A stretch of 64,000 nucleotides of DNA, from contig JAZQIV010000176.1 in assembly GCA_045541305.1 (NCBI GenBank), positions 3,173 through 67,172 on the forward strand, read 5' to 3'. Under the pieces are notes generated by a model, which was not told where the DNA came from, ran no database searches, and saw nothing but the letters and a program-made list of their open reading frames with translations. Source of the stretch: Acutalibacteraceae bacterium. Its GTDB lineage: Bacteria > Bacillota > Clostridia > Oscillospirales > Acutalibacteraceae. The position numbers and the translations under genes were made by a program. Positions 1,391-55,176 of this stretch are shown one piece after another (position 1 is the first letter of the stretch; each line of letters opens with the position of its first letter).

Positions 1391-1455
1391 AATATATCGC
1401 AGTTCCTTGTTATTCCCAAGTACAAAAACAACACTTTTTCAAGGAGGCACACACA

Positions 1456-8414: not shown

Positions 8415-10592
8415 ATGGAGTGGCAGGTTGGCTTCAGTCAAACAGAAAACGAATATCCGGAGTTGTTTTACCCGGCAACGGTGCCCGGCGCGGTTCAGTT
8501 GGATATGAAAGCGGCGCTCGGGTATCCGGATTACAACATTGGCACCAACGTGTTGGAGTACCGTTGGATGGAAGACCGATACTGGTGGTACCGCACTGTC
8601 ATTCAGGTGGACGATCGGGAGGATTGCACCCCTGTTTTGGTGTTTCTGGGAATTGAATATGCCTTTGTCATTCGGATCAACGGTGAGAGAAAGTGCGAGC
8701 AGGAAGGCATGTTCACACCGGTTGAACTGGATATGTCCGAGTATGCGGGAAAAACCGCATCAATAGAGGTTATGATTTACCCCTCTCCGCGGCGTGCGGG
8801 TGTGGAGGAGAATACCGCTGCACAGGCGTCAGCGTCGTGCAAACCCCCGTTTTCATACGGATGGGATTGGTGTCCTCGATTGGTTTCGCTCGGTATTTAT
8901 CGAGATGTTGTGTTGGAATACCGTCCGTACAGCCATATTGCAGAGTGGGATGTTGACTATCGGTTAAACGAAACGATAGACCGCGCAGATTTAAAAATAT
9001 CCTATTATTTGGCGCAGGTCAAAAAAGGGGCAAAGCTTTCTTTTGTCTTGACGGATCAGCACGGAGCCGTTGTGCTGAAAAGGGAAGAGACGGTCACAAG
9101 CGCCGCAGGCGAACTTTTATGCACCTTGGATAACCCCCAGCTTTGGTGGCCCAATGGGCATGGAGATCCGACACGGTACCGTGCACAGCTCACGTACGCA
9201 CTCCCGGGTGAGAGCACTTCGTGCGTGGAACGGTGGATTGGTTTTCGATGTGTACAGCTGTCCATGAATGCAAAAGCATGGGATCCCATGCCATTTCCTA
9301 CGACTAGAGCCAATCCACCGATCACCATTCAGATAAACGGAAAACGAATTTTTGCGAAGGGCAGCAATCTGGTACCGCCGGATATTTTCCCCTCGCGTTG
9401 CACACCGGCGGTATGTGAAGAATTGGTGCGTACCGCCAAAGAATTGAATATGAATATTCTGCGCCTGTGGGGCGGTGGATATATTTTGCCGAACGAGTTT
9501 TATGAGTTGTGTGATCGGTACGGGATCATGGTGTGGCAGGAGTTCCCGCTTGCCTGCAATAACTATCCCGATGACGCACAGTATTTGCGTATTCTCGATC
9601 AGGAATCGCGTTCGATTATTCGTCAGCTTCGTCGGCACCCTGCGCTGGTCATGTGGTGCGGTGGTAATGAGTTGTTTTGCTACTGGTCGGGTATGACGGA
9701 TCAGTCGTTGGCATTGCGGTTGTTGGATCACAACTGTTTGGAGTTGGACCCGTTAACACCGTTTATTGCGTCGTCACCGTTGCACGGTATGGTACATGGG
9801 TTTTATTGTCCCATTGATCCGGAAAGCGGCACGGAGGCGATCAGCATGATGTGCAATGCGCATGCTACCGCCTATACCGAGTTTGGGTGCGGTGCACCGT
9901 CACCGTGGGAGTATTTGACCACGTTCATGCCACCGGAGGAATTGCGTGAGCTGACACAAAGCGGTAGTTGGAAATTACACCATGCAGTGGAAGCGTGGGA
10001 TGAAAAGGATACGTGGTTTTCCCCGAAGTTGATTGAGTATTTTGTGGGAAAATCCGAAGATCTTCAAACTGCAGTTGTACAAGGAAATGCCATACAAACG
10101 CTCATATATCGGCATTTGTTCGAAGAAGCACGTATGCAATGGCCGATATGTTCCATGGCGTTGAATTGGTGCTATAACGAACCGTGGCCGACTGCGGCGG
10201 GAAACAGTCTTATGAATTATCCCGCCGTTCGAAAGCCGTGTTGTGAAGCGGTAAAAGCCGCACTTGCTGATCAGGCGGTGGCGGTGCGCATTCCGCGATT
10301 GGCATGGTCGGTCGGTGAACAATTCACCGCTACCGTGTGGCTGTTAAATGACAGCGATCGTACCATCAGCGCCGGACGCATTCAGGTAAAGTTGATGCGC
10401 GAGAATGCCCAAAGCGAACGGCTGCTTTTATGGGAACACGATGAGATAGCGCCGCGTACGAACTGTGAAGGAAAATCGATTTCCTGGGTAATCCCGAACG
10501 ACGCAAAGGGTAAGTTTACACTTTGTGTTGAATCTGTGGAGCATCCGGAATGGAACACAACCTATACGATCTTGATCCGCCCCGAAGCATAA
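8415..10592 (+). CDS. Glycoside hydrolase family 2 (beta-mannosidase / exo-beta-glucosaminidase-like), intracellular
   Basis: GH2-type TIM-barrel motifs: NILRLWGGG, VMWCGGNELF (acid/base NE) and AYTEFGCGAP (nucleophile EFG). No signal peptide. Confidence 0.8.
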   Translation: MEWQVGFSQTENEYPELFYPATVPGAVQLDMKAALGYPDYNIGTNVLEYRWMEDRYWWYRTVIQVDDREDCTPVLVFLGIEYAFVIRINGERKCEQEGMFTPVELDMSEYAGKTASIEVMIYPSPRRAGVEENTAAQASASCKPPFSYGWDWCPRLVSLGIYRDVVLEYRPYSHIAEWDVDYRLNETIDRADLKISYYLAQVKKGAKLSFVLTDQHGAVVLKREETVTSAAGELLCTLDNPQLWWPNGHGDPTRYRAQLTYALPGESTSCVERWIGFRCVQLSMNAKAWDPMPFPTTRANPPITIQINGKRIFAKGSNLVPPDIFPSRCTPAVCEELVRTAKELNMNILRLWGGGYILPNEFYELCDRYGIMVWQEFPLACNNYPDDAQYLRILDQESRSIIRQLRRHPALVMWCGGNELFCYWSGMTDQSLALRLLDHNCLELDPLTPFIASSPLHGMVHGFYCPIDPESGTEAISMMCNAHATAYTEFGCGAPSPWEYLTTFMPPEELRELTQSGSWKLHHAVEAWDEKDTWFSPKLIEYFVGKSEDLQTAVVQGNAIQTLIYRHLFEEARMQWPICSMALNWCYNEPWPTAAGNSLMNYPAVRKPCCEAVKAALADQAVAVRIPRLAWSVGEQFTATVWLLNDSDRTISAGRIQVKLMRENAQSERLLLWEHDEIAPRTNCEGKSISWVIPNDAKGKFTLCVESVEHPEWNTTYTILIRPEA

Positions 10593-10663
10593 AAGAGCGC
10601 TTTTTGTTCTTTGTGTCGCGTTAGGAGGAATGGCTTATCAAAATTTTCAATCATATAGTATCG

Positions 10664-13513
10664 ATGGTTTGCGTTGCGGCGCTGTTAACGACAGCGGTGT
10701 GCACGCTTCCGACCGAACGTGTATCGGCAGAAACGTTCGACACAGAAACAACAGCGGTAACCGAAGGTTCCAACAAACGTGAAGACGGGTATCGGCATTA
10801 TCTGGAGCAATATCAGGGGAAAGCCAAACCGGTCAGTTCCATTATCATTCCCGCTGCCGACACGTATCGTCCGGAAACAGATGATACTGTCGCAGAGATT
10901 GTTGACGGACAACTGGGTGAAGATCATGTGCTGGCTTGGACAAGCGCCACCGGCAAAATTGCGTGGAAGTTTACTGTCCCGCAAGAGGGCTTGTATGCGT
11001 TCCGCATGCAATATCTTATGTTGAATCGCAATGCCCCTCAATTGGAAATGTCCTTATCGATCGATGGAGAGTCGCCGTTCTTGGCGGCTGAAAACCTGAT
11101 TTTTCCGCAGGCATTTGTCGACGAAACTGAGATCGGCACCGATAGCCGCGGTAACGATATCCGGCCCAAACAGATTTCGGTGGCTATGTGGTTGAATGAA
11201 TCGGCTGGGGATCGGGAAGGCACGGAAAACGACGCTTTCTTATTTTACTTATCTGAGGGTCAACACACGGTGTCGTTGGAGTCTTTACAGGCGCAGGTTG
11301 TCATTAAGCAACTGGAGTTTTATAACCAAGCGGCTTTGCCAACGTACCAAGAGTATGCCGCATCGGCAACGATCGAAAACGGTGTTTACGCGGATGTGAT
11401 AGAAGCGGAAAATGCCCTTTACAAATCGGCATCCATGCTATCACCGATCTATGACAGAACCAGTCCGGATACCAGTCCTTCCGATCCGGTTTGCTTGAAA
11501 TACAACACAATCGGCGGCAGCCGATACGCTTCTCAGGGATTGTACATTGTGTGGGAAGTCACGGCACCGAGGGATGGGTATTATCGGTTGGGACTCCGTG
11601 TCCGACAAAACGGCAACCGCGGTTTGAACTCCTATCGCCGTTTGTACATAAACGATGAGGTTCCGTTTAAAGAAGCGCAAGCCATCCCGTTCCCGTTCAG
11701 CGAGGATTGGCAAAACGTGGTGTTGGGCGATGAATCCGGCGAATGGTTATTCCGATTGAAAGAAGGCACCAATACCATTCGTTTGGAAGTTGTACCCGGC
11801 ACTTCGGCCGATCTCTCCGCCGCGTTAAGCGACGTTGTATATGAATTAAACTACCTGTATCGCAAATTGATTGCGGTGACGGGTGTTAACCCCGACCCGT
11901 ATCGCGATTATCAGATCGAGCGCGACGTACCGGGGGCATTGGATGCGATCAAATCGATCCGTGCACAGGTAGCCGATATTTTAGATGCCGCCCAGGCATT
12001 GGGTAATCAAACCACAGGTGCGCTCTCTTCCATCGAACAGATGGTAGTGCTGCTGGATGGTTTGATTGATAAACCCAACACGATTGCCCTGCGTGTTTCG
12101 CGGCTCAAAGATCGTATCAGCGCACTATCCTCGTTGATGCTTACTTTGCAATCCCATCCGTTGGAAGTGGACTATTTGGCAGTAGGGGAGCAGAATGCTT
12201 CTTTGTTCAAAGCGCGCCGCGGATGGTTAGATAAACTGTCCTATTCCGTTCAGGCGTTTTTGGGTACCTTCTGGTTTGACTACAGCACAATCGGTGACAG
12301 TAAACAAGCTGCCGAAACCATTGACGTGTGGGTGCAACAATCCCGCGATCAGGCAAACGTGCTCAAATCGTTGACCGACAGTATGTTCACGCCGGAATAC
12401 AACATTGCGGTCAATGTTAGTTTGGTGCAACAAAGTTTGGTGCAAGCTGCGCTTTCGGGCAGGGGTCCGGATGTGGTGGTGTTTGCAGGACCGAGTGAGC
12501 CGATCAATCTGGCATTCCGCAACGCAATGGAACCGTTGGATCAATATCCCAATTTCAAAGAGATCACCCAACGCTTTTCCAAGTACGCCATGTCACCGTA
12601 TTATTACAACGGCAGTACATATGCGTTGCCCGTGCAGGAAAACTTCTATATCATGTTTTACCGCACCGATATTTTTGAAGAACTCGGTTTGTCCGTTCCC
12701 AAAACATGGACAGAGTTTTACCGCATGGTACAGGTGTTGCAGCGCAGTAACATGACCGCGGGTGTGCCGAATATGCCGGTGGAAACGCAAATGCAGGCGG
12801 ATATCAGCGTGTTTGCTACCTTGCTAGCGCAAAACGGCGGGCGGTTCTATAACGATGAGCTATCGGCCACCTGCTTTACCACCGAAGAAGCGGTGGAAGC
12901 GTTTCAGCAATGGACATCCTTGTATAAAGATTACGGACTGCCGTATCAGTTTGACTTTTATAACCGTTTCCGTTCAGGAGAAATGCCGATTGGTATTTCG
13001 TATTACACGATGTACAACCAATTGAGTGCCGCTGCGCCCGAAATTCGCGGGTTGTGGGATTTTGCGCCGGTACCAGGTACCGTACAAGAGGATGGCACCG
13101 TGAACAACCGGGTGTGTGGCAGCGGAGCTTGCGCTGTTTTGTTCAAGGATAGTGAGAACAAGGATGCCGCTTGGAAGTTCATGGATTGGTTTACCGGTAA
13201 AGATGCCCAGGTGGCGTATGGCCTTGAATTGGAGTCGTTATTGGGTCCGGTTGGACGTTATGCCACCGCTAATTTGGAAGCGTTTGATTCTCTGCCTTGG
13301 AACAACAGTCAGCGCAATACGATCAAGCAGCAATGGGAGAGCGTGTTCCATTTGGAGCAGGTTCCCGGTGGCTATTTTGTGGATCGTAACATTACCAATG
13401 CGTTTCGCAAGGTGGTGTTCAAGCAGGCGAATGCCCGCGAAACATTGATTGAATACAACAAAGTGATCAACACGGAAATTACGCGTAAGCGTAAGGATTT
13501 TGGTTTGGAATGA
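10664..13513 (+). CDS. Large extracellular solute-binding protein with an N-terminal ~420-aa CBM-like extension (locus copy A)
   Basis: The C-terminal ~430 aa is family-1 sugar SBP-like. The N-terminal part has two beta-sandwich CBM6/35-like modules (IEAENALYKS...GYYRLGLRVRQNG) and a helical linker. The true start is probably upstream of 10664 (see finding on 10622-10666). Paralog at 48284. Confidence 0.85.
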   Translation: MVCVAALLTTAVCTLPTERVSAETFDTETTAVTEGSNKREDGYRHYLEQYQGKAKPVSSIIIPAADTYRPETDDTVAEIVDGQLGEDHVLAWTSATGKIAWKFTVPQEGLYAFRMQYLMLNRNAPQLEMSLSIDGESPFLAAENLIFPQAFVDETEIGTDSRGNDIRPKQISVAMWLNESAGDREGTENDAFLFYLSEGQHTVSLESLQAQVVIKQLEFYNQAALPTYQEYAASATIENGVYADVIEAENALYKSASMLSPIYDRTSPDTSPSDPVCLKYNTIGGSRYASQGLYIVWEVTAPRDGYYRLGLRVRQNGNRGLNSYRRLYINDEVPFKEAQAIPFPFSEDWQNVVLGDESGEWLFRLKEGTNTIRLEVVPGTSADLSAALSDVVYELNYLYRKLIAVTGVNPDPYRDYQIERDVPGALDAIKSIRAQVADILDAAQALGNQTTGALSSIEQMVVLLDGLIDKPNTIALRVSRLKDRISALSSLMLTLQSHPLEVDYLAVGEQNASLFKARRGWLDKLSYSVQAFLGTFWFDYSTIGDSKQAAETIDVWVQQSRDQANVLKSLTDSMFTPEYNIAVNVSLVQQSLVQAALSGRGPDVVVFAGPSEPINLAFRNAMEPLDQYPNFKEITQRFSKYAMSPYYYNGSTYALPVQENFYIMFYRTDIFEELGLSVPKTWTEFYRMVQVLQRSNMTAGVPNMPVETQMQADISVFATLLAQNGGRFYNDELSATCFTTEEAVEAFQQWTSLYKDYGLPYQFDFYNRFRSGEMPIGISYYTMYNQLSAAAPEIRGLWDFAPVPGTVQEDGTVNNRVCGSGACAVLFKDSENKDAAWKFMDWFTGKDAQVAYGLELESLLGPVGRYATANLEAFDSLPWNNSQRNTIKQQWESVFHLEQVPGGYFVDRNITNAFRKVVFKQANARETLIEYNKVINTEITRKRKDFGLE

Positions 13514-13526
13514 GGAGGGTTGCCGC

Positions 13527-14456
13527 ATGTCAAAGTTAACTGAAAAGTCGGCACTTGCCTCTCCGCGAGACAGTTTTGCAGGAGTGTGGCGGAAGCATGG
13601 CGAAAAATACTTGCTGCTGTTACCCTACATGATATTTTTCGTGGTTTTCACAATCATTCCGCTGCTGATGTCCGTCGCGTTGAGTTTCACGAACTTCAAT
13701 TTGTTGGAAACCCCGCAGTTTGTGGGCTTTGATAACTATTTGAAGTTGTTTTTGGAGGACGATGTTTTTCTGATCTCCTTAAAAAACACCATTGTTTTCG
13801 CTTTCGTCACCGGTCCTGTCAGTTACTTCTTAGCGTTGTTTTTGGCATGGTTTATTAACGAGATCGGAGCAAAGGGGCGGACGTTCTTCACGTTTCTGTT
13901 TTACAGTCCCAGTATTGCCGCCAATCTGTATGTGATTTGGAGTGCCATTTTCTCCGGCGATATGTATGGCTTTGCCAACAGCATTTTGATGAGCCTTGGT
14001 ATCATCAATGACCCCATCAACTGGTTAAGCGACCCTTCGTATGTGTTGGGTGTCATTATCTTGGTACAACTGTGGATGAGCATGGGCTCCGGCTTCTTGG
14101 CGTTCATCGCCGGTTTGCAAAATGTGGATAAGAGCCTGTATGAGGCCGGTGCTTTGGATGGTGTAAAAAACCGTTGGCAGGAATTGATCTATATTACCCT
14201 TCCGTCCATGGGCCCACAGCTTATGTTCGGTGCCGTTATGCAGATCAGTTCTTCGTTTGCCGCCGGCCGCATCAGTATTTCGCTGGCGGGTAACCCGACT
14301 ACCGACTACGCAGCGAACACGATCATCACCCATATTGTCGACTACGGTACAACACGCTATGAGTTGGGATACGCCTCGGCAATTGCCGTTGTTCTCTTCG
14401 CGGCCATGTTGCTGGCCAACGAGTTTATTTCCCGCTTTTTGAAGAAGTATAATTGA
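13527..14456 (+). CDS. Carbohydrate ABC transporter permease (MalF/UgpA type)
   Basis: Start moved to ATG 13527 (GGAGGG upstream). Six hydrophobic segments. EAA loop LYEAGALDGVKNRWQELIYITLP. Confidence 0.9.
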   Translation: MSKLTEKSALASPRDSFAGVWRKHGEKYLLLLPYMIFFVVFTIIPLLMSVALSFTNFNLLETPQFVGFDNYLKLFLEDDVFLISLKNTIVFAFVTGPVSYFLALFLAWFINEIGAKGRTFFTFLFYSPSIAANLYVIWSAIFSGDMYGFANSILMSLGIINDPINWLSDPSYVLGVIILVQLWMSMGSGFLAFIAGLQNVDKSLYEAGALDGVKNRWQELIYITLPSMGPQLMFGAVMQISSSFAAGRISISLAGNPTTDYAANTIITHIVDYGTTRYELGYASAIAVVLFAAMLLANEFISRFLKKYN

Positions 14457-14469
14457 GGGAGAACACCGT

Positions 14470-15348
14470 ATGACACATGCAAAAGCTCTCAGAGCATCAA
14501 AACCAAAAAAAGCAATCAAGCGAAATCCGATCGGGAACGCTTTCATTTTTACGATTTTGGGTCTTTTGGGATTGTTTACGGCTCTTCCGTTTTTGTACGC
14601 CGTTGTGCAGTCTTTCAAGCCCATGGAGGAGATCTTTATTTATCCTCCGCGCTTTATCGTGCAAAATCCGACGTGGGATAACTATCGCATACTCGGTCAA
14701 TTGGCAACCAACTCGTGGGTGACTTTGTCGCGGTACGTCTTCAACAGCGTGTTCGTTACGCTGGCAGCTACCGGAGCACACGTAGTGTTGGCATCGATGG
14801 CAGCTTTCCCGTTGGCAAAGTTCAAATTCCCGGGATCTCGTTTGATCAGCAGTATCGTGACCATGGCGCTGCTTTTCACGTCAGAGGTCATGATGATTCC
14901 GCAGTTTATCCTGATTTCTTCCATGGGGATCATGGATACATACTGGGCATTGATCGCACCGCCGATTGCCAGCACTCTCGGTCTGTTCTTGATGAAACAG
15001 TTCATGGGTCAGGTGCACGATTCGTTGATCGAGGCAGCCCGCATCGACGGTGCTACCCTGCACCGTGTATTTTGGAGCGTGGTTATGCCGTCCGTTAAGC
15101 CGGCATGGATGACGCTGATCATTTTCAGTTTCCAAGCAGTTTGGAATCGCGAGGGCGTAGAATTTATATTTAGCGAACAACTGAAAATGTTGCCTACCAT
15201 GCTGCGTCAGATCTCGTCTACCGGTATCGCCCGTGTAGGTGCTTCTTCCGCAGCGGCGGTTATCTTGCTGGTTCCGCCGATCGTCGTGTTTGTGTTTGCA
15301 CAATCCAACGTTCTGGAAACGATGTCCAGCGCAGGTATTAAGGAGTGA
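14470..15348 (+). CDS. Carbohydrate ABC transporter permease (MalG/UgpE type)
   Basis: EAA loop LIEAARIDGATLHRVFWSVVMPSVKP. GAGGGAG ribosome-binding site. Confidence 0.9.
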   Translation: MTHAKALRASKPKKAIKRNPIGNAFIFTILGLLGLFTALPFLYAVVQSFKPMEEIFIYPPRFIVQNPTWDNYRILGQLATNSWVTLSRYVFNSVFVTLAATGAHVVLASMAAFPLAKFKFPGSRLISSIVTMALLFTSEVMMIPQFILISSMGIMDTYWALIAPPIASTLGLFLMKQFMGQVHDSLIEAARIDGATLHRVFWSVVMPSVKPAWMTLIIFSFQAVWNREGVEFIFSEQLKMLPTMLRQISSTGIARVGASSAAAVILLVPPIVVFVFAQSNVLETMSSAGIKE

Positions 15349-15353
15349 TGTCC

Positions 15354-17447
15354 ATGAAAATTACAAGATGGATAGCGGCGCTTCTTGTCCTGATTTCCCT
15401 GTTTTCTGTCTCTGTTTCGGCCGCGGAACCGTATCGTGGTTACAACTATGATGCCTGGGGTGATTCCATACCGGCCCCCAACGGCTACACAGTACAGCAG
15501 ATTCTCACGTTTGCCGATACTGCGTTGCTTGGCTTGAAGCAACCGCAGGATCTGGTGCTTGAGGGAGAGTATCTGTACATTTTGGATAGCGGAAACAGCC
15601 GTATTGTTGTGTGTGATACGCAGTTGCAGCCGATCCAAGCGATTACGGTCACGGATTCAGCCGCACAGGCGGTGGATATCAGCGGCGCCAAAGGTTTGTT
15701 CGTGAAGGACGGCCGCCTGGTAATTGCCGATACCGTGAACGCCCGTGTGCTGATCACGGACGCTGACGGCGTCATCGTACGGGTAGTGGGAGGGCCTGCC
15801 GAAGGGACGTTGCCCACCGAGTCGCCTTACGCACCTTGTAAAGTGATTCTGGATGACCTGGAAAACTTGTATGTCATCAGCGAAAACTGCTATCTTGGCG
15901 CGTTGGTGTTCAACGCTGCCGGTGAGTTTGATGGTTTTTTTGGTGCGAACAAGGTAAGTCTTACAGCGGCACAATTGGTTCAGCGCTTGTGGCGAAAGCT
16001 GATGACGGAAAAGCAAGCCAGCTACACCGCGAACTATGTGCCGATCGACTATAAGAATTTTGATATTGACGGTCAGGGCTTTATTTATACCTGCTCCGCC
16101 AATGCCAATTTGGATCAGTTATCGCGCAATGAGATCAAAAAGCTGAATGCACTCGGCGACAATATTCTGTTGACCGACACCACGTCACGGGGTGTTATGA
16201 AGAGTGATTACGGTGACAAAGAACGTGTGACAATCGAAAAAATCTACTATGATACCAGTTTCATCGATGTTGACGTTTGTCGAAATGGATTCATCAATGC
16301 GTTGGATGCCACACGCGGTCGTGTGTTCCAATACAATCAGGACAGCGATCTTTTGACAGTGTTCGGTGGTATTGACGAACAAAAGGGGACTTTTGTAAAA
16401 CCGATTGCGATTGAAAGTGTCGGCGACAGCGTGTTGGTGTTGGACGAAGCAAAGAATTCGATCACTGTTTTCACACCGACACAGTACGGTGCGGTTGTGC
16501 GAAAAGCGGTCATGCAACAGAGCGCCGGTCGGTTTGATGAGTGCTTGGAATCTTGGCGGGAAGTGTTGCGCTATAATTCCAACAGCGAACTGGCGAACTC
16601 CAGCATCGGGCGTGTACTGATGCAGAAAGAACAGTATAAAGAAGCCCTGCACTACTTCAAGCTGGGACAGGATCGAACCGGTTATTCCAGCGCCTTCCGC
16701 TTTTACCGGTCCGAGTTGCTCAAAATCTTTTTCCCTGTGCTGGCGATTGCACTGATCGCGTTGGTAACCTATGCGTTGATGCATACCAAGATCAAGCAAC
16801 GTATTTACGAAAAACGCGGATACGGTCCGCGTGAAAAGAGTTTATATATCAGCCACACGCTGACGCACCCCCTCAATTTCTTTGAGGATCTGTTTTATAA
16901 CAAGAGTAAAAGCGCCCTGGTTGGCTCTTTTGCGGTTGCGGCATTATTGGTGTTGGCAACGGCGTTGGAAAGCCAGGCAACAGGCTTCATTTTTAACCAG
17001 AACAAGCCGTCCGAGTTCAATATTTTCTTGGTTTTGGCCTTCTCGCTCGGTTTGATTTTGTTGCTCACCGTATCGAACTGGATCGTCAGTACTTTGCTGT
17101 GGGGTGAGGGTACCTTTAAGCAGGCGTGGATGGGTACTTGCTATGCGCTGGTTCCGTATATCATCGCACTGTACGTATCGGTCATTTTGAGCAACATTTT
17201 GGTGTTGGAAGAGGGCGCTCTCACCGACATGGTCCTGACAGCGGGTCTGTTATATTCGGTGTTTTTATTATTCACCTCCGTGCGGCTGATGCAGCAATAC
17301 ACTTTCAAACGCGCCGTAGCGGCTACTGTTTTGATTGTGCTGGTTTCGCTGCTATTGTTGTTCCTGTTGGTATTGGTCTATAGTTTGTTAAGACAAATTT
17401 TTGTATTTGCGCTCACGTTGGTTACAGAAATATTGTTTAGGGTTTAA
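15354..17447 (+). CDS. Signal peptide + NHL-repeat beta-propeller + TPR-like region + TM helix + C-terminal 5-TM Yip1-like domain
   Basis: Start moved to ATG 15354 (AAGGAG 8 nt upstream). NHL-like blades: LYILDSGNSRIVVCD, LVIADTVNARVLITD, VLVLDEAKNSITVF. TPR-like segment: QKEQYKEALHYFKLGQD. Six hydrophobic helices lie in the last ~240 aa. Paralog at 53055. Confidence 0.7.
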   Translation: MKITRWIAALLVLISLFSVSVSAAEPYRGYNYDAWGDSIPAPNGYTVQQILTFADTALLGLKQPQDLVLEGEYLYILDSGNSRIVVCDTQLQPIQAITVTDSAAQAVDISGAKGLFVKDGRLVIADTVNARVLITDADGVIVRVVGGPAEGTLPTESPYAPCKVILDDLENLYVISENCYLGALVFNAAGEFDGFFGANKVSLTAAQLVQRLWRKLMTEKQASYTANYVPIDYKNFDIDGQGFIYTCSANANLDQLSRNEIKKLNALGDNILLTDTTSRGVMKSDYGDKERVTIEKIYYDTSFIDVDVCRNGFINALDATRGRVFQYNQDSDLLTVFGGIDEQKGTFVKPIAIESVGDSVLVLDEAKNSITVFTPTQYGAVVRKAVMQQSAGRFDECLESWREVLRYNSNSELANSSIGRVLMQKEQYKEALHYFKLGQDRTGYSSAFRFYRSELLKIFFPVLAIALIALVTYALMHTKIKQRIYEKRGYGPREKSLYISHTLTHPLNFFEDLFYNKSKSALVGSFAVAALLVLATALESQATGFIFNQNKPSEFNIFLVLAFSLGLILLLTVSNWIVSTLLWGEGTFKQAWMGTCYALVPYIIALYVSVILSNILVLEEGALTDMVLTAGLLYSVFLLFTSVRLMQQYTFKRAVAATVLIVLVSLLLLFLLVLVYSLLRQIFVFALTLVTEILFRV

Positions 17448-17469
17448 TGTCGGGATAGGAGGTACACAG

Positions 17470-19722
17470 ATGAAGCGTAACGGATGGAAGTCACTTGCAA
17501 AACGCTTAGCTTTATTGGTGACTGCAATTTCGTTGTTTTTACTGACGGGCCTATCCGGATCCGTATTAGCAAGCGGTTCCACACCGCTCATATTGGATGA
17601 TAGTGATGCCGACGAACCCACATTTATTGAAGGGCGTCAGTTCGAAAAAATGGGTGAAACCTCTGCATTGGCGCTGTACGTTGTCAAAAACGGCACCTAC
17701 GCTGGCGAATTTTACATCGAGCAAAAGGCGAACGGCACCAAATGGTTTTCAAATCCGCAAGATCGGTTTACGGATGAAGAATCACGCGGTGCCGCCAAAA
17801 TGGCCTTAAACGCGCAATTGTTGTTCTATTACTACGATAGCGAGTTGAACGCCAGAAGCGCGGTTGTAAACAGTTTTGTCGGTAAAGACAACGACGTTGA
17901 GGTGCTGGTGCGCGAAATCGAAAACGGCGCAAAACTGATCTACCGTTTTTCCAATCTCAAGATTGCCTTAGCGCTGTATGTGGAATTGCACAACGATGCG
18001 TTCAAGGCCTATATCAAAACGGATGAAATTGTGGAGCAGGGCGGCAATTATGTGATGGATATTTCCCTTTTGCCGTACTTCGGCAGTGCCGGCAAGGGGG
18101 AATCCGGATATTTGTTGGTGTCTGACGGATCGGGTGGCGTGATTGAGTTTGCCAATGCAAATGCGCACCAGCCGTACGTGGAGCGCATATACGGGGAAGA
18201 TCTCGGCTTTGCTAAAGACTCCCAATCCCATAAAGGTGAACAGGTACATTTGCCGGTTTACGGGCTTTCCCGTGAGGATGGCGGCTTTTTGGGAATCATT
18301 ACGGGTGGTGACGCAGTAGCCGGTATCAATGCATATGTATCCGGCTTGTACAATTCGCAAAATAATATCTATACTTCATACACAGTCCGTAACGCCGGTG
18401 TTATCTCACTTGGCCAAAGCAACACAATGTGGACTGCGTCCAATGAGCAATTCGACCTGGAGAATAAGCAGACCGATCTGTGTGAGATGACCTATTATTT
18501 CCTGGATGCACAGGCCGGCTACAGTGGCATGGCACAACGTTATCGCCAGTATTTGTCGGATACCAAACAGCTGCAAGCAACCGAGGTCGCGGCCATGCCG
18601 CCCCTGTACTTGGAATTGTATGGCGGCGTTATGAAACAAACCCACTTTTTGGGTATTCCGATTCAGCGCTATACGCCGATGACAAGTTTTTCCCAAGCAG
18701 AGGAAATGGTACGGTATTTTACCGAGCAAGGGGCAGACGATACTATTGTGCTGTTGCGCAATACCGATAGTGCACAAGCAAAAGGTAAGCTGCAAAACAA
18801 GGTTCGTTTCGCAAGCGGAATGGGTGGCAAAAAGGCACTCGCCGGACTTGTCGAAACGGCGGGGCAGACGTTTTTAACCTATCAGCCGATGAATATCACC
18901 AGCGGCGGTAACGGGTTCAGCCGTTTCTTCCACGCCGCCAAGCGCTACGATCGCAATCCCTTGATTCAGATTTCGTATAAGCCCAGCACTTACTATAAGG
19001 ATTTAACGGTGAAGGACCGTTTTGTGATGCGTCCGGAGCTGTTTGTGAAAAAGAGTGCGCAGTATGCAGCCTCGGTGGGCAAACTGTCCGGCGTCGGTAT
19101 TGCAACGGTTGATGTGGGAACGGTGTTGCCCGCCAATTATGACGAAAAGCACTATGTCACACGCACACAGTCTGTCGATTATATGCAGGAAACCTTGGCA
19201 CAGTTGAGCGGCGCTGTATACGCCCCCAACGCCTATGCACTCAAAAATGCTTCCGTGTTGACGGATATCCCGTTCGGGAACTCCGAATTGGATATTATCA
19301 GCTACAACGTTCCTTTCTATCAGCTGGTTGTGAGCGGGCAAAAAGAATTTTCGCTTACCGCGTTTAACATCGGCGATGCCATGGAGGAGGATTTCTTCTT
19401 AAAATCGGTAGAAACCGGCGCAGGTATGAAAGGCACGTTGGTATATGAAAATGCCGATGCGGTCATTGATACGCCGCTTGATCATCTGTACGGCACGAAT
19501 TTCGATTTGTGGAAATCCGTACTGACCGAACGGCAAAACCAATTGCAACAGATCTTCACGGAAATCGGTTCCCGTGAAATGATCGCACACGAACAGCTGT
19601 CGGCAGGTGTATACTGTACGACCTTCCGTTCCGGTAAAAAAGCGGTTGTGAATTACAATCAATCGTCCGTTGATACCGTGTACGGAACGGTATCGGCCAA
19701 ATCGTGGCTGATTGTGAAATAG
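17470..19722 (+). CDS. Uncharacterised ~750-aa secreted protein (recalled as DUF5696-like; unverified)
   Basis: Start moved to ATG 17470 (TAGGAGG upstream). Signal peptide MKRNGWKSLAKRLALLVTAISLFLLTGLSGSVLASG. Motifs shared with the paralog at 55177: LLP.FG...GYL.V.DGSG..., Y.VPFYQ.V..G. Confidence 0.6.
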   Translation: MKRNGWKSLAKRLALLVTAISLFLLTGLSGSVLASGSTPLILDDSDADEPTFIEGRQFEKMGETSALALYVVKNGTYAGEFYIEQKANGTKWFSNPQDRFTDEESRGAAKMALNAQLLFYYYDSELNARSAVVNSFVGKDNDVEVLVREIENGAKLIYRFSNLKIALALYVELHNDAFKAYIKTDEIVEQGGNYVMDISLLPYFGSAGKGESGYLLVSDGSGGVIEFANANAHQPYVERIYGEDLGFAKDSQSHKGEQVHLPVYGLSREDGGFLGIITGGDAVAGINAYVSGLYNSQNNIYTSYTVRNAGVISLGQSNTMWTASNEQFDLENKQTDLCEMTYYFLDAQAGYSGMAQRYRQYLSDTKQLQATEVAAMPPLYLELYGGVMKQTHFLGIPIQRYTPMTSFSQAEEMVRYFTEQGADDTIVLLRNTDSAQAKGKLQNKVRFASGMGGKKALAGLVETAGQTFLTYQPMNITSGGNGFSRFFHAAKRYDRNPLIQISYKPSTYYKDLTVKDRFVMRPELFVKKSAQYAASVGKLSGVGIATVDVGTVLPANYDEKHYVTRTQSVDYMQETLAQLSGAVYAPNAYALKNASVLTDIPFGNSELDIISYNVPFYQLVVSGQKEFSLTAFNIGDAMEEDFFLKSVETGAGMKGTLVYENADAVIDTPLDHLYGTNFDLWKSVLTERQNQLQQIFTEIGSREMIAHEQLSAGVYCTTFRSGKKAVVNYNQSSVDTVYGTVSAKSWLIVK

Positions 19723-19733
19723 GTGGTGGAAAC

Positions 19734-20651
19734 ATGCGAACAACAACACAAACAACTGGGAAGCTGCGTAAGAAGCTTTCTTATGAAAAGCGCCGTTCGC
19801 TTTTCGGTTACGGTTTTATCGCGATGTGGTTTGTCGGGTTTATCGTATTTTTCCTGCGGCCGCTCATTATGATCATGGTCTACACGGTCGCCAGTCCCGA
19901 ACTCGGTGCCGAAGGATACGTTTTGAGTTTTGTGGGCCTTGAAAACTACCGACGCCTATTCCTGGAAGACCCGGAATTCTTACAACGGTTATTCAATTCC
20001 TTTTTGGATTTAGTGATGAATGTCCCCATCATCGTAGCAGTCAGCTTGTTGGTGGCGGTCATTTTGAACCAGAAGTTTGTGGGAAGAACCTTTTTCCGCG
20101 GCGTGTTTTTTGTGCCGGTCATTGTGGCAACAGGTTTGGTGATCGGTATTTTGAAAGGCGAAACTATGTCCTCCTACATGATGGAGGGCGGCAGTTCCGC
20201 CATGATGAGCGTCAGCAGTATTGATGTTGTGCTGGAACGGATGAACGTGCCGACAGCGCTCAGTACATGGCTGATTGATGCCGCTAACTCCATTTTTGAT
20301 CTCCTTTGGAAATCGGGTATTCAAATTCTGCTCTTCATTGCGGCTTTGCAGACGATTCCCGCCAGCGTTTACGAGGCTTCGTCGGTCGAGGGGGCGTCAG
20401 GCTGGATCAACTTCTGGAAGATCACCATTCCCATGATTTCGCCTATGATCCTGCTCAGCGTTGTCTATACGATCATCGATTCGTTCGTGGATTCCAATAA
20501 CAAATTGATGAGTTACATCGATGAGCTTTCCCGTAATCTGCAAACGTCGTACAGCTCTACCATGGCGGTTATCTATTTCGTTTGCGTGCTGGTCTTTATC
20601 GGTGCCGTATATAAACTGATGAGTCGTTTTGTCTTTTATTCTGTTGATTAA
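19734..20651 (+). CDS. Carbohydrate ABC transporter permease (MalF type), second pair
   Basis: Start moved to ATG 19734. EAA loop VYEASSVEGASGWINFWKITIPMISP. Confidence 0.9.
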   Translation: MRTTTQTTGKLRKKLSYEKRRSLFGYGFIAMWFVGFIVFFLRPLIMIMVYTVASPELGAEGYVLSFVGLENYRRLFLEDPEFLQRLFNSFLDLVMNVPIIVAVSLLVAVILNQKFVGRTFFRGVFFVPVIVATGLVIGILKGETMSSYMMEGGSSAMMSVSSIDVVLERMNVPTALSTWLIDAANSIFDLLWKSGIQILLFIAALQTIPASVYEASSVEGASGWINFWKITIPMISPMILLSVVYTIIDSFVDSNNKLMSYIDELSRNLQTSYSSTMAVIYFVCVLVFIGAVYKLMSRFVFYSVD

Positions 20652-20662
20652 GGAGGGACGGT

Positions 20663-21664
20663 ATGTTTCGTGTATTTACGAAAGCGCGTGTGTCCGATGG
20701 GCAACGGAGTCCGTTGCGTGACCGCGATATCAAAACACGACAAAAACCTGTGCAGGTTTTGTGGGCGTTTGCTCGGTATGCTTTGCTGATCAGCTTGTCG
20801 TTCGTGCTGTTGTATCCGCTGATCTACATGCTGAGTATGGCGTTGCGCACACCGTCCTCCATGTTTGATCCGTCGGTTGTCTGGTTGCCTCGCGCTCCCA
20901 CTTTCAAGAGCATTATGGAAGTGTGGAACCTGATGAACTACGGCGAGGCGATCTGGAACACCATTTACATCTGCATTACCAGTTCGCTGTTGCAGATGGT
21001 TTCCTGCGCATTGACCGGTTACGGTTTTGCTCGCTTTAACTTCAAATACAAGAATTTGTTATTTGGCGGTGTCCTGCTGACAATTTTAGTGCCGCCGCAG
21101 ACAATCATCATTCCGCTGTTCGTTGATATGCGGTATTTTGATTTTATGTTTATCGGACAGTTGGGACGGTTGTTTAGCGACGGTGCGTGGACGGTCAATC
21201 TGTATGACAGCCCGCTTGTTATGTTCATCCCGGCATTGTTTGCCAATGGTATCCGCGGCGGGTTGTTCATCTACATTTTCCGCCAATTCTTCCGAGGTTT
21301 GCCTCGCGATTTGGAGGACGCGGCAGCGGTGGACGGTTGCGGTATCCTGCGGATGTTTGTCAAAATTGTGATTCCGTGCTCCGGTGCCGCATTTTTAACG
21401 GTTTCGTTATTTTCTTTTGTGTTTTACTGGAACGATTATTATTATACCGGCATGTTTTTCTCAGAACTGAACATCGTATCTTCCGTGTTGCGAAACTTAC
21501 AAACCAGTATCAGCCAACTCGGCATACACCAGTTCGATCGCATCCTGACAGCACCGTATATGCAGGCGGGTGCACTTTTGGCCATTATTTTTCCCTTGAG
21601 TATCTATTTGATATTCCAACGCTTCTTTACGGAAAGTATTGAACGTACCGGCATTGTTGGTTAA
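20663..21664 (+). CDS. Carbohydrate ABC transporter permease (MalG type), second pair
   Basis: EAA loop LEDAAAVDGCGILRMFVKIVIPCSG. AAGGAGGG ribosome-binding site. Confidence 0.9.
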   Translation: MFRVFTKARVSDGQRSPLRDRDIKTRQKPVQVLWAFARYALLISLSFVLLYPLIYMLSMALRTPSSMFDPSVVWLPRAPTFKSIMEVWNLMNYGEAIWNTIYICITSSLLQMVSCALTGYGFARFNFKYKNLLFGGVLLTILVPPQTIIIPLFVDMRYFDFMFIGQLGRLFSDGAWTVNLYDSPLVMFIPALFANGIRGGLFIYIFRQFFRGLPRDLEDAAAVDGCGILRMFVKIVIPCSGAAFLTVSLFSFVFYWNDYYYTGMFFSELNIVSSVLRNLQTSISQLGIHQFDRILTAPYMQAGALLAIIFPLSIYLIFQRFFTESIERTGIVG

Positions 21665-21706
21665 GTGGCAACACATACCATACACACAATCTAAGGAGGT
21701 CTTTTT

Positions 21707-23161
21707 ATGAAGAAAGGTTTACGCTGTTTGGCTATCCTGTTGGCGGTGTGCTTATTGATGACAGTCACTGCTTGTGGACCGCAAGATTCGGGTGACGTGG
21801 AAAACACCACAACTACGACGAATCCGGACATGTCTTTTGAGGATACACCGTCTGACGGTGAGGGCTCGCAGGGCACAGCATCCGGTGCAACAACCACTAA
21901 GAATCCCGCATCGGATAAAACGACTACCGGCAAAACATCGTCTTCTTCCGGCAAGACAACGACGACCGTTGCCGTGGACGTGGAAGATACGATGAAGGAG
22001 ATCAATGTTAACGGAAAAACCGTTACGATCATGACGCACGGTTCCGCCAACTCTACCGGTGGTAAACTGTTGAGTTCAAACTTCAAAAAGTATGCCAACG
22101 GCAAGATCAAGTTCATGACCTATGATTTTAACGATCTTGCAGTGAAACTCCAGGCGGCGGTATTGGCACAGTCACCTCCGGACATCTACCAATTCCGCAA
22201 TCAGGATTTCCCGACCATTTTGTATAAGAACCTGCTGGAACCCTTGGAAGATCACATTGACATGAGCAGTGCTGTTTGGAAAAACGTCAAGGATTCCATG
22301 GCTCCATACGTATGGGGAGGCAAAAGCTATTTTATCCCGCAAATCTCGGTAGACCGTTATATTTGGTACAACAAAACCGTTTTCACCAATGCCGGTGTCA
22401 CTTCGCCCGACGAACTCTTTAAGGCCAATAACTGGACTTGGGACACCTTCAAGAAAGCGGCGGAAGACGTCACGGATGATCGCGCCGGTGTTTATGGCTT
22501 TGCGAACGGCGCTAACTTGTGTTATGCCGCATTGGCAAGCGCGAACACTGATTTGATCACCGTTACCAACCAAGGAATCACGAACAACGTCATGTCGGCT
22601 GAGGTTACCAAGGCTATGAACTTCCTGTCCGCGATTCAGACCTCCGGTGCGGTGCCGAAGAATTCCTCGGATACGGCAGTTAACATGTTTAAACAAGGCA
22701 AGATTGCCATGCTGTACGAAGGCTCGTGGCTTGCTTCCTCGGATAAGACGTTGCAGAACATGATCGCAAACGGTTCTGTAGATATGGTCATGTTCCCGCG
22801 TATGGATGTGAGCAGCCCGTACCGCAGTCATGTCGGTATCAGCGGTTACGGTATCGGCAAAGGCACAAAAAATATCGAATGTGCCAAGGCGTTCATCACG
22901 ATGATGGCGCTTAGCGATTCGTTGAAGGAAGAAACGGTTTCGAAGATGCATCAGGCCGAAAAGCATTCCGAAGCCTTCAAAGCGATTTACAAGCAAGCAA
23001 ACGAAAGCCTTTTGGTTCCGGCATATTCTCTTGGCGTTTCCACGATCAACGATGTGTATTGGCCGGCGGTTACCAGCTTGTACAACGGTACTCCTTGGAG
23101 CACTCTGGCGAATGAGCTCAAGCCGAAAATCGATAGCGCACTGGACTATTTGGGTAAATAA
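21707..23161 (+). CDS. Extracellular sugar-binding lipoprotein (family-1 SBP) with a Thr/Ser-rich tether
   Basis: Lipobox LMTVTAC, a T/S-rich linker, then an SBP-like body (KIAMLYEGSW...). AAGGAGG ribosome-binding site. Confidence 0.85.
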   Translation: MKKGLRCLAILLAVCLLMTVTACGPQDSGDVENTTTTTNPDMSFEDTPSDGEGSQGTASGATTTKNPASDKTTTGKTSSSSGKTTTTVAVDVEDTMKEINVNGKTVTIMTHGSANSTGGKLLSSNFKKYANGKIKFMTYDFNDLAVKLQAAVLAQSPPDIYQFRNQDFPTILYKNLLEPLEDHIDMSSAVWKNVKDSMAPYVWGGKSYFIPQISVDRYIWYNKTVFTNAGVTSPDELFKANNWTWDTFKKAAEDVTDDRAGVYGFANGANLCYAALASANTDLITVTNQGITNNVMSAEVTKAMNFLSAIQTSGAVPKNSSDTAVNMFKQGKIAMLYEGSWLASSDKTLQNMIANGSVDMVMFPRMDVSSPYRSHVGISGYGIGKGTKNIECAKAFITMMALSDSLKEETVSKMHQAEKHSEAFKAIYKQANESLLVPAYSLGVSTINDVYWPAVTSLYNGTPWSTLANELKPKIDSALDYLGK

Positions 23162-23191: not shown

Positions 23192-24832
23192 ATGCCGAAA
23201 CTAATTGCAACGATTGCCGATTCGCTGAAAAAGATTGAGTGGAACAGTCCGGCCCCTAAGGGGCTGGACTGTCCGCTTACCATGTTTTCAAACGAGCGGT
23301 TATCTTTTCAGATCAGCTACCTCTACGACGGAAATCTGACCATGGAACCGTGCTGGTTGTCCTTGTCCGTAAAGTCGGCGTTGGCACCGTACGTGACCGT
23401 CCGTGAGGTAGATATGGTGCCATGCACGTTTCCGTGTTATTCCGAGCATGACGATCACTATCTGTTTACCGAGCCTCGGCTGGTTCCGGATATTTTGCAA
23501 CCGTTGCGTTATCATGAGCTTCCGGTGATTCCGGGGCGCCGCAGCACGTTGTGGTTCATGGTCTGTGGCAACGATTTGCCGGCAGGCAAACACACCGTTG
23601 AGATCGAACTGTCCTGCGCAGAGGAAACCGAAACGGTAACGGTCGACATTGAGGTGTACCCCCAAGCGTTGCCGGAGCAACGGCTCTTGTTTACGCAATG
23701 GTTGCATCACGATTGTATTGCGCACACGCATCATGTTGCTATGTTCTCGGAAGAGTATTGGCACCTGCTTCGGCAGTATGTGCAGATGGCGGCCGATTAC
23801 GGTGTTAACACCATCTTGACCCCGTTGGTTACCCCGCCGTTGGATATTGCGGAAGGGTTAGAGCGCATGACCTGTCAGCTGGTCGATATCTATTGCGATA
23901 ACGGTCGGTATACCTATGGCTTTGAGCGTCTGGAACGTTTTATCGACCTGTGTCTGGAATGCGGGATCACCCATTTTGAAATGGGACATCTTTTCACGCA
24001 ATGGGGTGCCAAAGCAGCACCGAAAGTCATGGCAGTTATCGATGGCCGCGAGCAACGGATTTTCGGTTGGGAAACGCAGGCGGACGGGGAGGAATACCGT
24101 GCGTTTTTGCGTAATTTTTTGCCGAAGCTGGATCAGTTTTTGCATCAGAAAAACATCGCAGACCGTTGTCTTTTCCACGCGTCCGATGAACCGAGTGTCA
24201 CCGATATGGGTCCCTATTGCTCAGCGGTTGCTGAGCTGAAGGCGTTGCTGCCAAATTATCCGCTCATGGATGCTTTGTCTTCGCTGGAGGTGGCCAAACG
24301 AAGCGAGGTTATCTATCCGGTTGTGGCAATCGACCATATCCAACCGTTTTTGGATCAAGGCATCACCCCTCTGTGGGGGTATTATTGTTGCGGTCAGTAT
24401 AAAGACGTTAGCAATCGATTCATGGCCATGCCTTCTTGCCGTAATCGCATTTTGGGAATTCAAAGCTATAAGTTTAACCTCATGGGCTTTTTACATTGGG
24501 GTTATAATTTTTACAATTGTCGGTTATCGCGATACCCCATTGATCCGTATCACGTTACCGATGCGGATCGTGCGTTCCCGTCGGGCGATGCCTTCTCGGT
24601 GTACCCGACAGAGGACGGCTGTATCGAATCGTTACGTCTTGTCGTATTCCATGAAGGATTACAGGATTATCGTGCACTGACCCTGTTAGAGCAATTGATC
24701 GGTCGCGCACAAACTTTACAATGGTTGGAAACACAGTTGCCCGGGATCACGTTTTCCGAGTACCCGTGTGACGATGCGATCCTTTCCAAGTTCCGTTATG
24801 CGCTCAACCAAGAAATCTTGAAGCATCTGTAA
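23192..24832 (+). CDS. DUF4091 / GH123-like glycoside hydrolase candidate (intracellular)
   Basis: 546 aa with no signal peptide. Motifs recalled from DUF4091 proteins: FHASDEP, FLHWGYNFYN, PSGDAFSVYP. The family assignment is from memory only. Confidence 0.55.
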   Translation: MPKLIATIADSLKKIEWNSPAPKGLDCPLTMFSNERLSFQISYLYDGNLTMEPCWLSLSVKSALAPYVTVREVDMVPCTFPCYSEHDDHYLFTEPRLVPDILQPLRYHELPVIPGRRSTLWFMVCGNDLPAGKHTVEIELSCAEETETVTVDIEVYPQALPEQRLLFTQWLHHDCIAHTHHVAMFSEEYWHLLRQYVQMAADYGVNTILTPLVTPPLDIAEGLERMTCQLVDIYCDNGRYTYGFERLERFIDLCLECGITHFEMGHLFTQWGAKAAPKVMAVIDGREQRIFGWETQADGEEYRAFLRNFLPKLDQFLHQKNIADRCLFHASDEPSVTDMGPYCSAVAELKALLPNYPLMDALSSLEVAKRSEVIYPVVAIDHIQPFLDQGITPLWGYYCCGQYKDVSNRFMAMPSCRNRILGIQSYKFNLMGFLHWGYNFYNCRLSRYPIDPYHVTDADRAFPSGDAFSVYPTEDGCIESLRLVVFHEGLQDYRALTLLEQLIGRAQTLQWLETQLPGITFSEYPCDDAILSKFRYALNQEILKHL

Positions 24833-51175: not shown

Positions 51176-51207
51176 GTTACATTTTTAATGGTATCATCTC
51201 CGAAAGG

Positions 51208-52128: not shown

Positions 52129-52139
52129 GGGGTTTTTCG

Positions 52140-53033: not shown

Positions 53034-53054
53034 TTGCTAAAAGGAGGCGGTATC

Positions 53055-55175: not shown

Positions 55176-55176
55176 A

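Follow-up and report, generated by a model that had tools for sequence, protein, structure and literature searches.

A conserved seven-gene cassette of two CUT1-type importers and two envelope proteins, a candidate glycan-uptake platform of Bacillota

The window analyzed here, a 64,000-nucleotide stretch of an Acutalibacteraceae bacterium (GenBank assembly GCA_045541305.1, contig JAZQIV010000176.1, positions 3,173 to 67,172 of the forward strand), carries two copies, A and B, of a seven-gene cassette that encodes, in one order, a giant solute-binding protein (SBP), two permeases (P1 and P2), an NHL/TPR/Yip1 protein, a DUF5696 protein (PF18952), and two further permeases (P3 and P4). The same order is conserved across Bacillota, and we favor, with moderate confidence, the reading that this pair of carbohydrate uptake transporter-1 (CUT1) importers is a platform that captures and takes up glycans irrespective of substrate, set into substrate-specific loci. 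P1P2 and P3P4 are separate translocators, NHL/TPR-Yip1 and DUF5696 are always encoded between them, and the partner of P3P4 is an ordinary lipoprotein SBP encoded next to the cassette or elsewhere. A first-pass annotation had proposed that eight genes at copy A form a machine for glycan capture, processing, and import. That proposal was right in outline, but the core has seven genes, the copy A DUF5696 protein is probably inactive, and the argument drawn from gene overlaps is weak. The ORF listing and Pfam agreed with the order and place of its eight + strand genes, and searches with hidden Markov models (HMMs) agreed with its domain calls (SBPs, four permeases, NHL/TPR/Yip1, and a guess at DUF5696). 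Copy A comprises the following genes:

10664-13513, + strand: giant SBP, 949 aa; SBP_bac_1, E=1e-27 at residues 580-849
13527-14456, + strand: permease P1 (MalF-type); BPD_transp_1; start supported by a Shine-Dalgarno sequence
14470-15348, + strand: permease P2 (MalG-type); BPD_transp_1, E=7e-13
15354-17447, + strand: NHL/TPR/Yip1 protein, 697 aa; Pfam NHL, TPR, Yip1
17470-19722, + strand: DUF5696 protein, 750 aa; PF18952, E=7e-139
19734-20651, + strand: permease P3 (MalF-type, second pair); BPD_transp_1 at 23.7 bits, under the 26.4 cutoff, EAA motif kept
20663-21664, + strand: permease P4 (MalG-type, second pair); BPD_transp_1
21707-23161, + strand: small lipoprotein SBP (accessory gene), 484 aa; SBP_bac_1, E=6e-27; lipobox VTAC

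With Shine-Dalgarno-supported starts, the genes of copy A are separated by 5-42 nt and have zero true overlaps. The ATGA/GTGA junctions from which a fixed stoichiometry had been argued are mostly artefacts of taking the longest ORF; two overlaps do exist in copy B, one ATGA (DUF5696/P3) and one of 14 nt (P3/P4). Nor did the annotated start of the giant SBP at 10637 hold, this being an in-frame ATC, 8 nt past AGGAGG; no canonical start precedes the ATG at 10664. The AGGAGG at 10623-10628 is the sole good Shine-Dalgarno sequence before the gene, its spacing fits the ATC and not the ATG, and a non-canonical start at 10637 would give the signal peptide a basic n-region; the protein may possibly begin there. 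Terminator-like sites were absent from the intergenic gaps of copy A, promoter and terminator counts were close to shuffle expectation, and an Rfam scan of the window returned no riboswitch and no other RNA family. From the gene arrangement, a single operon for the cassette is a reasonable reading.

The whole order of copy A had been said to recur at 48284-59328. Seven of the eight genes do recur there in identical order, but no SBP follows P4, and a protein of >1529 aa with CBM_4_9 and Big_2 domains lies in that place. The genes of copy B are these:

48284-51175, + strand: giant SBP; SBP_bac_1, weak Golvesin_C; 35% identity to copy A over 962 aligned columns
51220-52128, + strand: permease P1; BPD_transp_1; 49% identity to copy A P1 vs. 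25% to P3
52140-53033, + strand: permease P2; weak BPD_transp_1; 48% identity to copy A P2
53055-55175, + strand: NHL/TPR/Yip1 protein; NHL E=8e-16, Yip1 E=1e-11, TPR; 36% identity to copy A
55177-57444, + strand: DUF5696 protein; PF18952, E=2e-167; lipobox LVAC; Asp at columns 556 and 611
57441-58367, + strand: permease P3; BPD_transp_1; 41% identity to copy A P3
58354-59328, + strand: permease P4; BPD_transp_1; 41% identity to copy A P4

Across the two copies, amino acid identity is 27-49%, and the BLASTP match of each gene is its positional counterpart. Judged from this position-wise identity, copies A and B are old paralogs and not recent duplicates; in copy A, the NHL/Yip1 protein is nearer to proteins of other organisms (53%) than to that of copy B (36%).

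A scan of one genome per species, with a seven-sequence DUF5696 alignment as query, found at least 556 loci with DUF5696 relatives. We surveyed the neighborhoods of the best-scoring 80 of these and classified all ORFs with HMMs built from the window and five other loci. Of 85 distinct loci, 70 showed the order giant SBP-P1-P2-NHL/TPR(-)Yip1-DUF5696-P3-P4, and contig ends truncate 12 of the 15 that did not; the other incomplete loci are L058 (frameshifted), L004 (lacking P4), and L078 (a half-cassette without giant SBP, P1, and P2). L078 is the sole true exception to the seven-gene order: its positions 1-21830 hold NHL/Yip1-DUF5696-P3-P4 and three small SBPs, and GH29 and GH42 genes lie at the flanks. 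Because the same order recurs in 70 of 85 loci and 12 of the 15 others are contig-cut, chance adjacency is excluded, and the adjacency is clearly not confined to this genome. Colinearity spans Bacilli and Clostridia at ~30-45% identity and without shuffling. Distance matrices computed for eight domains over 71 complete cassettes correlate at r=0.89-0.96 between components, so the cassette is inherited as a block. On this comparative evidence the cassette is a functional unit, as had been supposed from its recurrence within the window. The unit is smaller than the eight genes first described, however: the seven-gene core is conserved and the small SBP is accessory, because 31 of the 70 complete loci have none adjacent (it lies downstream in 22, upstream in 13, and on both sides in 4).

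Among the hosts are Paenibacillus, Cohnella, Ruminococcus flavefaciens, Oscillospiraceae, Lachnospiraceae, and Caldicellulosiruptor; all named hosts belong to Bacillota, plus Acholeplasmataceae. The latter are wall-less and supply two giant-SBP homologs (P0213 and P0233), which argues that the cassette is independent of a peptidoglycan layer. Two cassettes occur in each of at least three assemblies. A profile search of 1.84 billion representatives (E<=1e-30) gave 4270 DUF5696 clusters at 50% identity. The literature searched made no mention of DUF5696, PF18952, or this combination of parts, in keeping with the earlier view that the architecture had not been characterized; subscription journals lay mostly outside its coverage, and a prior description is possible.

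The enzymes beside the cassette vary by locus and include glycoside hydrolase (GH) families GH2, GH123, GH20, GH26, GH39, GH32, GH29, GH16, GH43, GH38, and GH42. Among 145 flanking ORFs, Pfam identified GH32 (19), membrane GDPD (9), GH43, GH38, GH26, DUF4838, and GH78, together with AraC, two-component, and LacI regulators. In Caldicellulosiruptor danielii the gene order is unchanged, LacI preceding the cassette and a small SBP, GH26/CBM27, and GH39 following it; four GH32 genes surround the cassette of Cohnella candidum; one locus from a metagenome-assembled genome has GH29 and GH16 alongside, and another has dockerin proteins. The cassette of L005 stands alone, and its NHL and Yip1 genes are separate and overlapping. 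Nine R. flavefaciens-type cassettes (L034, L036, L043, L045, L048, L053, L060, L072, and L073) have DUF5696 proteins 935-960 aa long, encode NHL and Yip1 separately, and are followed, at ~14100-16100 in each, by a membrane glycerophosphodiesterase (GPDPase_memb + GDPD), with no carbohydrate-active enzymes. Several R. flavefaciens-type cassettes are preceded by ABC-2 transporter genes.

The division into two importers, also part of the first-pass reading, is borne out by both the permeases and the SBPs. The four permeases form two BPD_transp_1 pairs in which every member has an EAA loop conserved in 78-82 orthologs (P1 in 78 orthologs; P2, lEAAkiDGA; P3, slyEaa..EGA in 82 orthologs; P4, LEeAA.iDGC), so both pairs should be able to couple to an ATPase. 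Both the giant and the small SBP are of the SBP_bac_1/8 type found in CUT1 systems. After removal of the signal common to all components, partial Mantel tests (999 permutations) left specific residuals within each importer: P3-P4 0.59, giant SBP-P2 0.42, and giant SBP-P1 0.34 (all p=0.001). Where a small SBP gene adjoins the cassette (36 cases), its product covaried with P3 (0.63) and P4 (0.53) and negatively with P1/P2. The EAA loops in all four permeases and this specific covariation between SBPs and permeases support two classical importers, giant SBP with P1P2 and small SBP with P3P4. Of two other pairings, one was rejected and one found no support. The gene order hints at DUF5696 as the binding partner of P3/P4, but its residuals were 0.06 and -0.05 (p=0.12 and 0.84), and the small SBP was strong instead; the giant SBP as a feeder of both translocators had residuals with P3/P4 of only 0.05 and 0.09. 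Among the remaining pairs (p=0.001), NHL-DUF5696 reached 0.45, giant SBP-DUF5696 0.36, NHL-Yip1 0.25, and Yip1 with P1, P3, and P4 0.17-0.21. These values suggest that giant SBP, NHL/TPR, and DUF5696 form an outer layer under common constraints, with Yip1 related to both permease pairs.

The giant SBP had been credited with arms resembling carbohydrate-binding modules (CBMs), and its AlphaFold2 model (predicted local distance difference test, pLDDT, 88.4) agrees. Two β-sandwiches (residues 60-220 and 243-377) come first, long helices packed as a bundle (381-496) follow, and the SBP domain (500-945) comes last. Foldseek with the whole protein matched oligosaccharide SBPs over the C-terminal domain only (TMt 0.7-0.8) and returned no fold match for the β-sandwich arms. 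Across 50 homologs, the arms hit Golvesin_C in 37, CBM_35 in 23, and CBM_6 in 2, all below gathering scores; fold and weak homology together support CBM6/35-like modules. The copy A protein has a hydrophobic N-terminus without a lipobox, and a lipobox occurs in only 6 of 117 homologs, which is unusual for a Gram-positive SBP. Because the family nearly lacks lipoboxes, the giant SBP would be held at the cell by an uncleaved anchor or a partner protein.

In copy A, the NHL/TPR/Yip1 protein is predicted to have a cleavable signal, an extracellular NHL/TPR part, one transmembrane helix, and a five-helix Yip1 domain (hydrophobic segments at residues 520-675), six transmembrane segments in total. 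Both domain assignments clear their Pfam cutoffs (Yip1, PF04893, 49.8 bits in copy A and 45.2 in copy B against 28.6; NHL, 28.3 and 57.6 bits against 20). The nearest solved sequences to the NHL part are the NHL domains of Thin and TRIM71, the propeller itself being predicted from the repeats. NHL and Yip1 are fused in 31 of the 70 complete loci and split into adjacent genes in 39, and all 29 of 29 split NHL/TPR proteins keep a C-terminal transmembrane helix. Because the two parts occur both fused and split but adjacent, they probably act together. YknW, a Yip1-family protein of the Bacillus subtilis YknWXYZ system, is reported to modulate assembly of an ATP-binding cassette (ABC) transporter (PMC4887032); the literature searched offered no other precedent for such an action by this family. 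Like the cassette, that system encodes a Yip1-family membrane protein with an ABC transporter; unlike it, YknYZ belongs to the MacB-type exporters and has a membrane fusion protein, whereas the cassette has type I importer permeases and a Yip1 domain joined or adjacent to NHL/TPR.

The ~750-aa protein had been described as lacking a recognizable catalytic motif, yet DUF5696 has a GH129-like glycosidase fold, with a candidate catalytic Asp pair in most members. Its AlphaFold2 model (52 homologs; mean pLDDT 89.2) is a β-sandwich, a (β/α)8 barrel, and a second β-sandwich. Foldseek against the PDB ranked the GH129-like DagB (5opq; E=1.6e-32) and the GH129 enzyme NagBb (5wzn; E=2.4e-25) best, followed by GH101, GH36, GH31, and GH97. 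The DUF5696 sequence profile also reached GH129 in the PDB (hmmsearch, E=1e-10), and the protein thus has both fold and homology in common with this family. DUF5696 has the same three-domain architecture as NagBb and DagB (ZGAL_3152), at TM-scores of 0.6-0.7, and, as in DagB, a conserved Asp after β4 and conserved N-domain acids. It differs from GH129 in its low identity (11-14%), its extracellular location (signal or anchor in copy A; lipobox in copy B), its tie to transporters, and, in copy A, Asn and Ser at the candidate catalytic sites. NCBIfam held no informative family for DUF5696 or for the NHL/TPR/Yip1 protein, and HMM and structure searches placed neither of these middle proteins in a well-characterized family with an unrelated role.

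The candidate pair lies about ten residues past β4 and β6: D556 in the motif LYSD[FY] and D611 before VPFYQ. Both are kept in 93 of 139 members of a mixed sample. An alignment of 146 sequences, made up of copy A and the 145 representatives with the best scores, has both in 125. In the 146-sequence alignment, D556 is conserved at 90%, D611 at 94%, D219 at 95%, and R565 at 97%; D219, D244, R565, N633, and E648, and likewise W432, fall within 90-97%. Position 556 is Asp in 83-90% of the family, by sample. Catalysis in DagB is reported to involve the N-domain Asp202 of a second monomer, Asp486, and Glu517/Glu531, and Asp486 is the sole one common to NagBb (PMC5698469). Both Asp486 and the NagBb nucleophile, Asp435, follow β4. 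Interpolated between HMMER-aligned segments, Asp486 falls in DUF5696 residues 535-569, a stretch whose one conserved acid is D556, and Asp202 falls near the conserved D244/D219 motifs; the full profile aligned with GH129 only over the N-domain, β1 to β3, and the C-domain, and a barrel-only profile only in the β2/β3 region. Copy B keeps both Asp, whereas Asn556 and Ser611 replace them in copy A, which departs from the family at W432 and G436 as well; its Asn556 would correspond to the D486N substitution used for trapping the Michaelis complex in 8rzk. Our reading of the model is that the family consists mostly of active, uncharacterized glycosidases predicted to be related to GH129, and that the copy A protein, with Asn at the candidate nucleophile, is probably a non-catalytic variant.

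In the mechanism we favor, locus-specific secreted enzymes would release glycan fragments, which the CBM-like arms of the giant SBP would retain at the cell surface. DUF5696 would trim or debranch these fragments, the copy A version probably only binding them. One class of product would then enter through the giant SBP and P1P2 and another through the small SBP and P3P4, with ATP hydrolysis by a shared MsmK-type ATPase encoded elsewhere. Within the membrane, Yip1 would touch both permease pairs, and the NHL/TPR ectodomain would position DUF5696 and the untethered giant SBP. Cytoplasmic exo-glycosidases (GH2 and GH123 in locus A; GH20, DUF4838, and DUF6259 in locus B) would complete the breakdown. 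A stronger version, which we offer tentatively and regard as doubtful, is that all seven proteins form one membrane super-complex, or utilisome, in which Yip1 bridges the two translocators and NHL/TPR docks the CBM-armed SBP and the GH129-like (pseudo-)enzyme. If true, capture, cleavage, and two-channel import would be physically coupled, and the assembly would be a monoderm counterpart of SusCD reused for many glycans.

Several points weigh against the platform and its mechanism as drawn. We infer a physical complex only from covariation and from the fused and split forms of NHL-Yip1, and the covariation of distance matrices is suggestive only: it may reflect a common compartment or substitution rate, and permutations model phylogeny incompletely. 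The cassette contains no ABC ATPase gene, and none of the window proteins scanned matched ABC_tran; Firmicutes commonly rely on a shared ATPase whose gene lies elsewhere. The catalytic mapping of DUF5696 onto GH129 comes from interpolation and secondary-structure position, not superposition, and the Asp pair is missing in 14-33% of members, depending on the sample. Enzymes like GH129, GH101, GH36, and GH31 are mostly α-glycosidases, and by this analogy such an enzyme would have no obvious common bond to act on in fructan, β-mannan, and hexosaminide loci. The R. flavefaciens-type cassettes beside a glycerophosphodiesterase do not fit a simple plant-glycan story. The survey covered the best-scoring 80 of at least 556 loci, and remoter DUF5696 genes may stand in other contexts.

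The alternative that survives best, although we think it unlikely, is that the cassette holds two independent CUT1 importers and an ordinary secreted glycosidase of a new GH129-related family, linked by co-regulation only, with an unrelated NHL/TPR/Yip1 protein (an adhesin or sensor) and no complex. Every part does resemble a known kind of stand-alone protein, the pairing of SBPs and permeases obeys the classical rule of one SBP per translocator, the half-cassette L078 exists, and catalytic-type residues are 90-97% conserved among the best-scoring DUF5696 representatives. Independent parts do not readily account for strict colinearity from Bacilli to Clostridia at such low identity, or for the covariation of NHL with DUF5696 and of Yip1 with both permease pairs. 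A giant SBP without a lipid anchor would need some other means of retention at the cell, and copy A retains its DUF5696 gene although both candidate Asp are lost.

The substitutions in copy A also speak for a second alternative, to which we give little credence: that DUF5696 is throughout the family mainly a non-catalytic glycan receptor or lid, a pseudo-glycosidase, and that the cassette serves for binding and import only. The incomplete retention of the Asp pair in the mixed sample and the linkage of the cassette to chemically unrelated glycans are in line with such a role, as is the covariation of DUF5696 with both SBPs, which is expected of proteins that contact a ligand. However, copy B and most of the 146 aligned sequences keep the pair, and the conservation of D219, R565, N633, E648, and W432 is an active-site-like pattern. 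Least probable, and in our view very improbable, is that the cassette recycles or remodels the cell's own envelope glycopolymers (teichoic-acid-like or capsule) rather than taking up nutrients: nine flanking membrane GDPD ORFs, mostly at R. flavefaciens-type loci without carbohydrate-active enzymes, and cassettes that stand alone, such as L005, would suit that role, but most surveyed loci and both window copies are surrounded by catabolic glycosidases and by regulators that respond to sugars (LacI, AraC, two-component), the SBP domain has its matches among oligosaccharide binders, and homologs occur in wall-less Acholeplasmataceae.

The platform reading also draws on the surroundings of the two copies, where the following genes lie:

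7352-8380, + strand: LacI-family regulator heading locus A; Pfam LacI and Peripla_BP_4, E=4e-47
8415-10592, + strand: GH2 glycosidase, locus A; Glyco_hydro_2_N2/2/2_C; no signal peptide
23192-24832, + strand: GH123 glycosidase, locus A; GH123_cat, E=8e-100; no signal peptide
38093-39634, + strand: lipoprotein SBP, locus B; SBP_bac_1; lipobox LTAC; 24% identity to the copy A small SBP, E=6e-19
59413-64000, + strand, open to the window end: secreted multi-CBM protein after copy B, >1529 aa; CBM_4_9 x5, Big_2 x2; signal peptide

The operon of locus A extends in both directions, with LacI and GH2 upstream and GH123 and three dehydrogenases downstream. The GH2 enzyme is probably cytoplasmic because its N-terminus has no signal peptide. 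Since GH2 and GH123 of locus A and GH20, DUF4838, and DUF6259 of locus B all lack signal peptides, final glycan breakdown is, by prediction, cytoplasmic, the usual Firmicute arrangement. Farther upstream of locus A (125-3333 and 3961-7278) are a 421-aa protein and a 648-aa protein without Pfam match, the latter with a signal peptide, and a secreted protein of 1105 aa that matches F5/8 type C weakly; these three may be uncharacterized extracellular parts of the locus. G+C is ~0.50 over locus A and its flanks (1-30000) and 0.42-0.46 over locus B (30000-60000), and because of this difference the two loci may have different histories, one of them, for example, having been acquired by transfer.

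In locus B, the lipoprotein SBP at 38093-39634 sits 8.6 kb upstream of copy B on the same strand and is a candidate small SBP serving that copy. The multi-CBM protein, which also carries weak GH16 and PL4-domain signals, is a candidate extracellular partner of the locus in glycan binding or degradation. A DUF4838 protein without a signal peptide (46102-48255) lies directly upstream of copy B, after GH20, and DUF4838 also occurs beside cassettes in at least two further genomes. The cytoplasmic DUF6259 protein (41791-43788) is a remote relative of DUF5696 (Pfam E=6e-4; hhalign E=5e-4, probability 31%); its YVPDGLG corresponds to VPDGSGA of DUF5696, the barrel β2/β3 region also aligns, and DUF6259 may belong to the same GH129-like superfamily.

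Set against known systems, the cassette resembles CUT1 importers such as MalEFG and MsmEFG, with their shared MsmK/MsmX, in its SBP_bac_1 proteins, MalF/MalG-type EAA permeases, lack of a local ATPase gene, and adjoining cytoplasmic exo-glycosidases. It differs in fixing two translocators together, in a ~950-aa SBP with two CBM-like modules, a helical bundle, and no lipid anchor, and in two obligatory non-transporter envelope proteins between the permease pairs. Both window loci have the makeup of Gram-positive polysaccharide utilization loci (gpPULs), with a regulator, transporters, and glycosidases on one strand (LacI, GH2, and GH123 in locus A; AraC, GH20, DUF4838, and the CBM_4_9 protein in locus B). 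gpPULs are loosely defined, whereas here a fixed seven-gene core recurs, engine-like, at loci for different glycans; on the platform reading, its paralogs would each have become specialized for a substrate of their own. With SusC/SusD of Bacteroidota there is a functional analogy only: both are capture-import modules present in several diverged copies per genome beside differing carbohydrate-active enzymes. The two are not homologous, the cassette being ABC-driven with neither a TonB-dependent transporter nor an outer membrane, and no TonB-dependent transporter or SusD-like lipoprotein domain was found in any scanned window protein.

How Gram-positive bacteria of gut, rumen, and soil capture and import complex glycans is far less understood than the Sus paradigm. 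With at least 556 loci among species-representative genomes and ~4300 DUF5696 clusters at 50% identity, the cassette is widespread, and its hosts include important fiber degraders (R. flavefaciens, Oscillospiraceae, Lachnospiraceae, Paenibacillus, and Caldicellulosiruptor). Its occurrence within a genome in several diverged copies, each beside different enzymes, is the behavior expected of a generic uptake engine. If confirmed, the cassette would make Yip1 and NHL proteins obligatory accessory subunits of type I ABC importers and would define a novel SBP class, unlipidated and with CBM-like arms, and a probable new glycosidase family. It would also provide a practical genomic marker of glycan utilization loci in Firmicutes.

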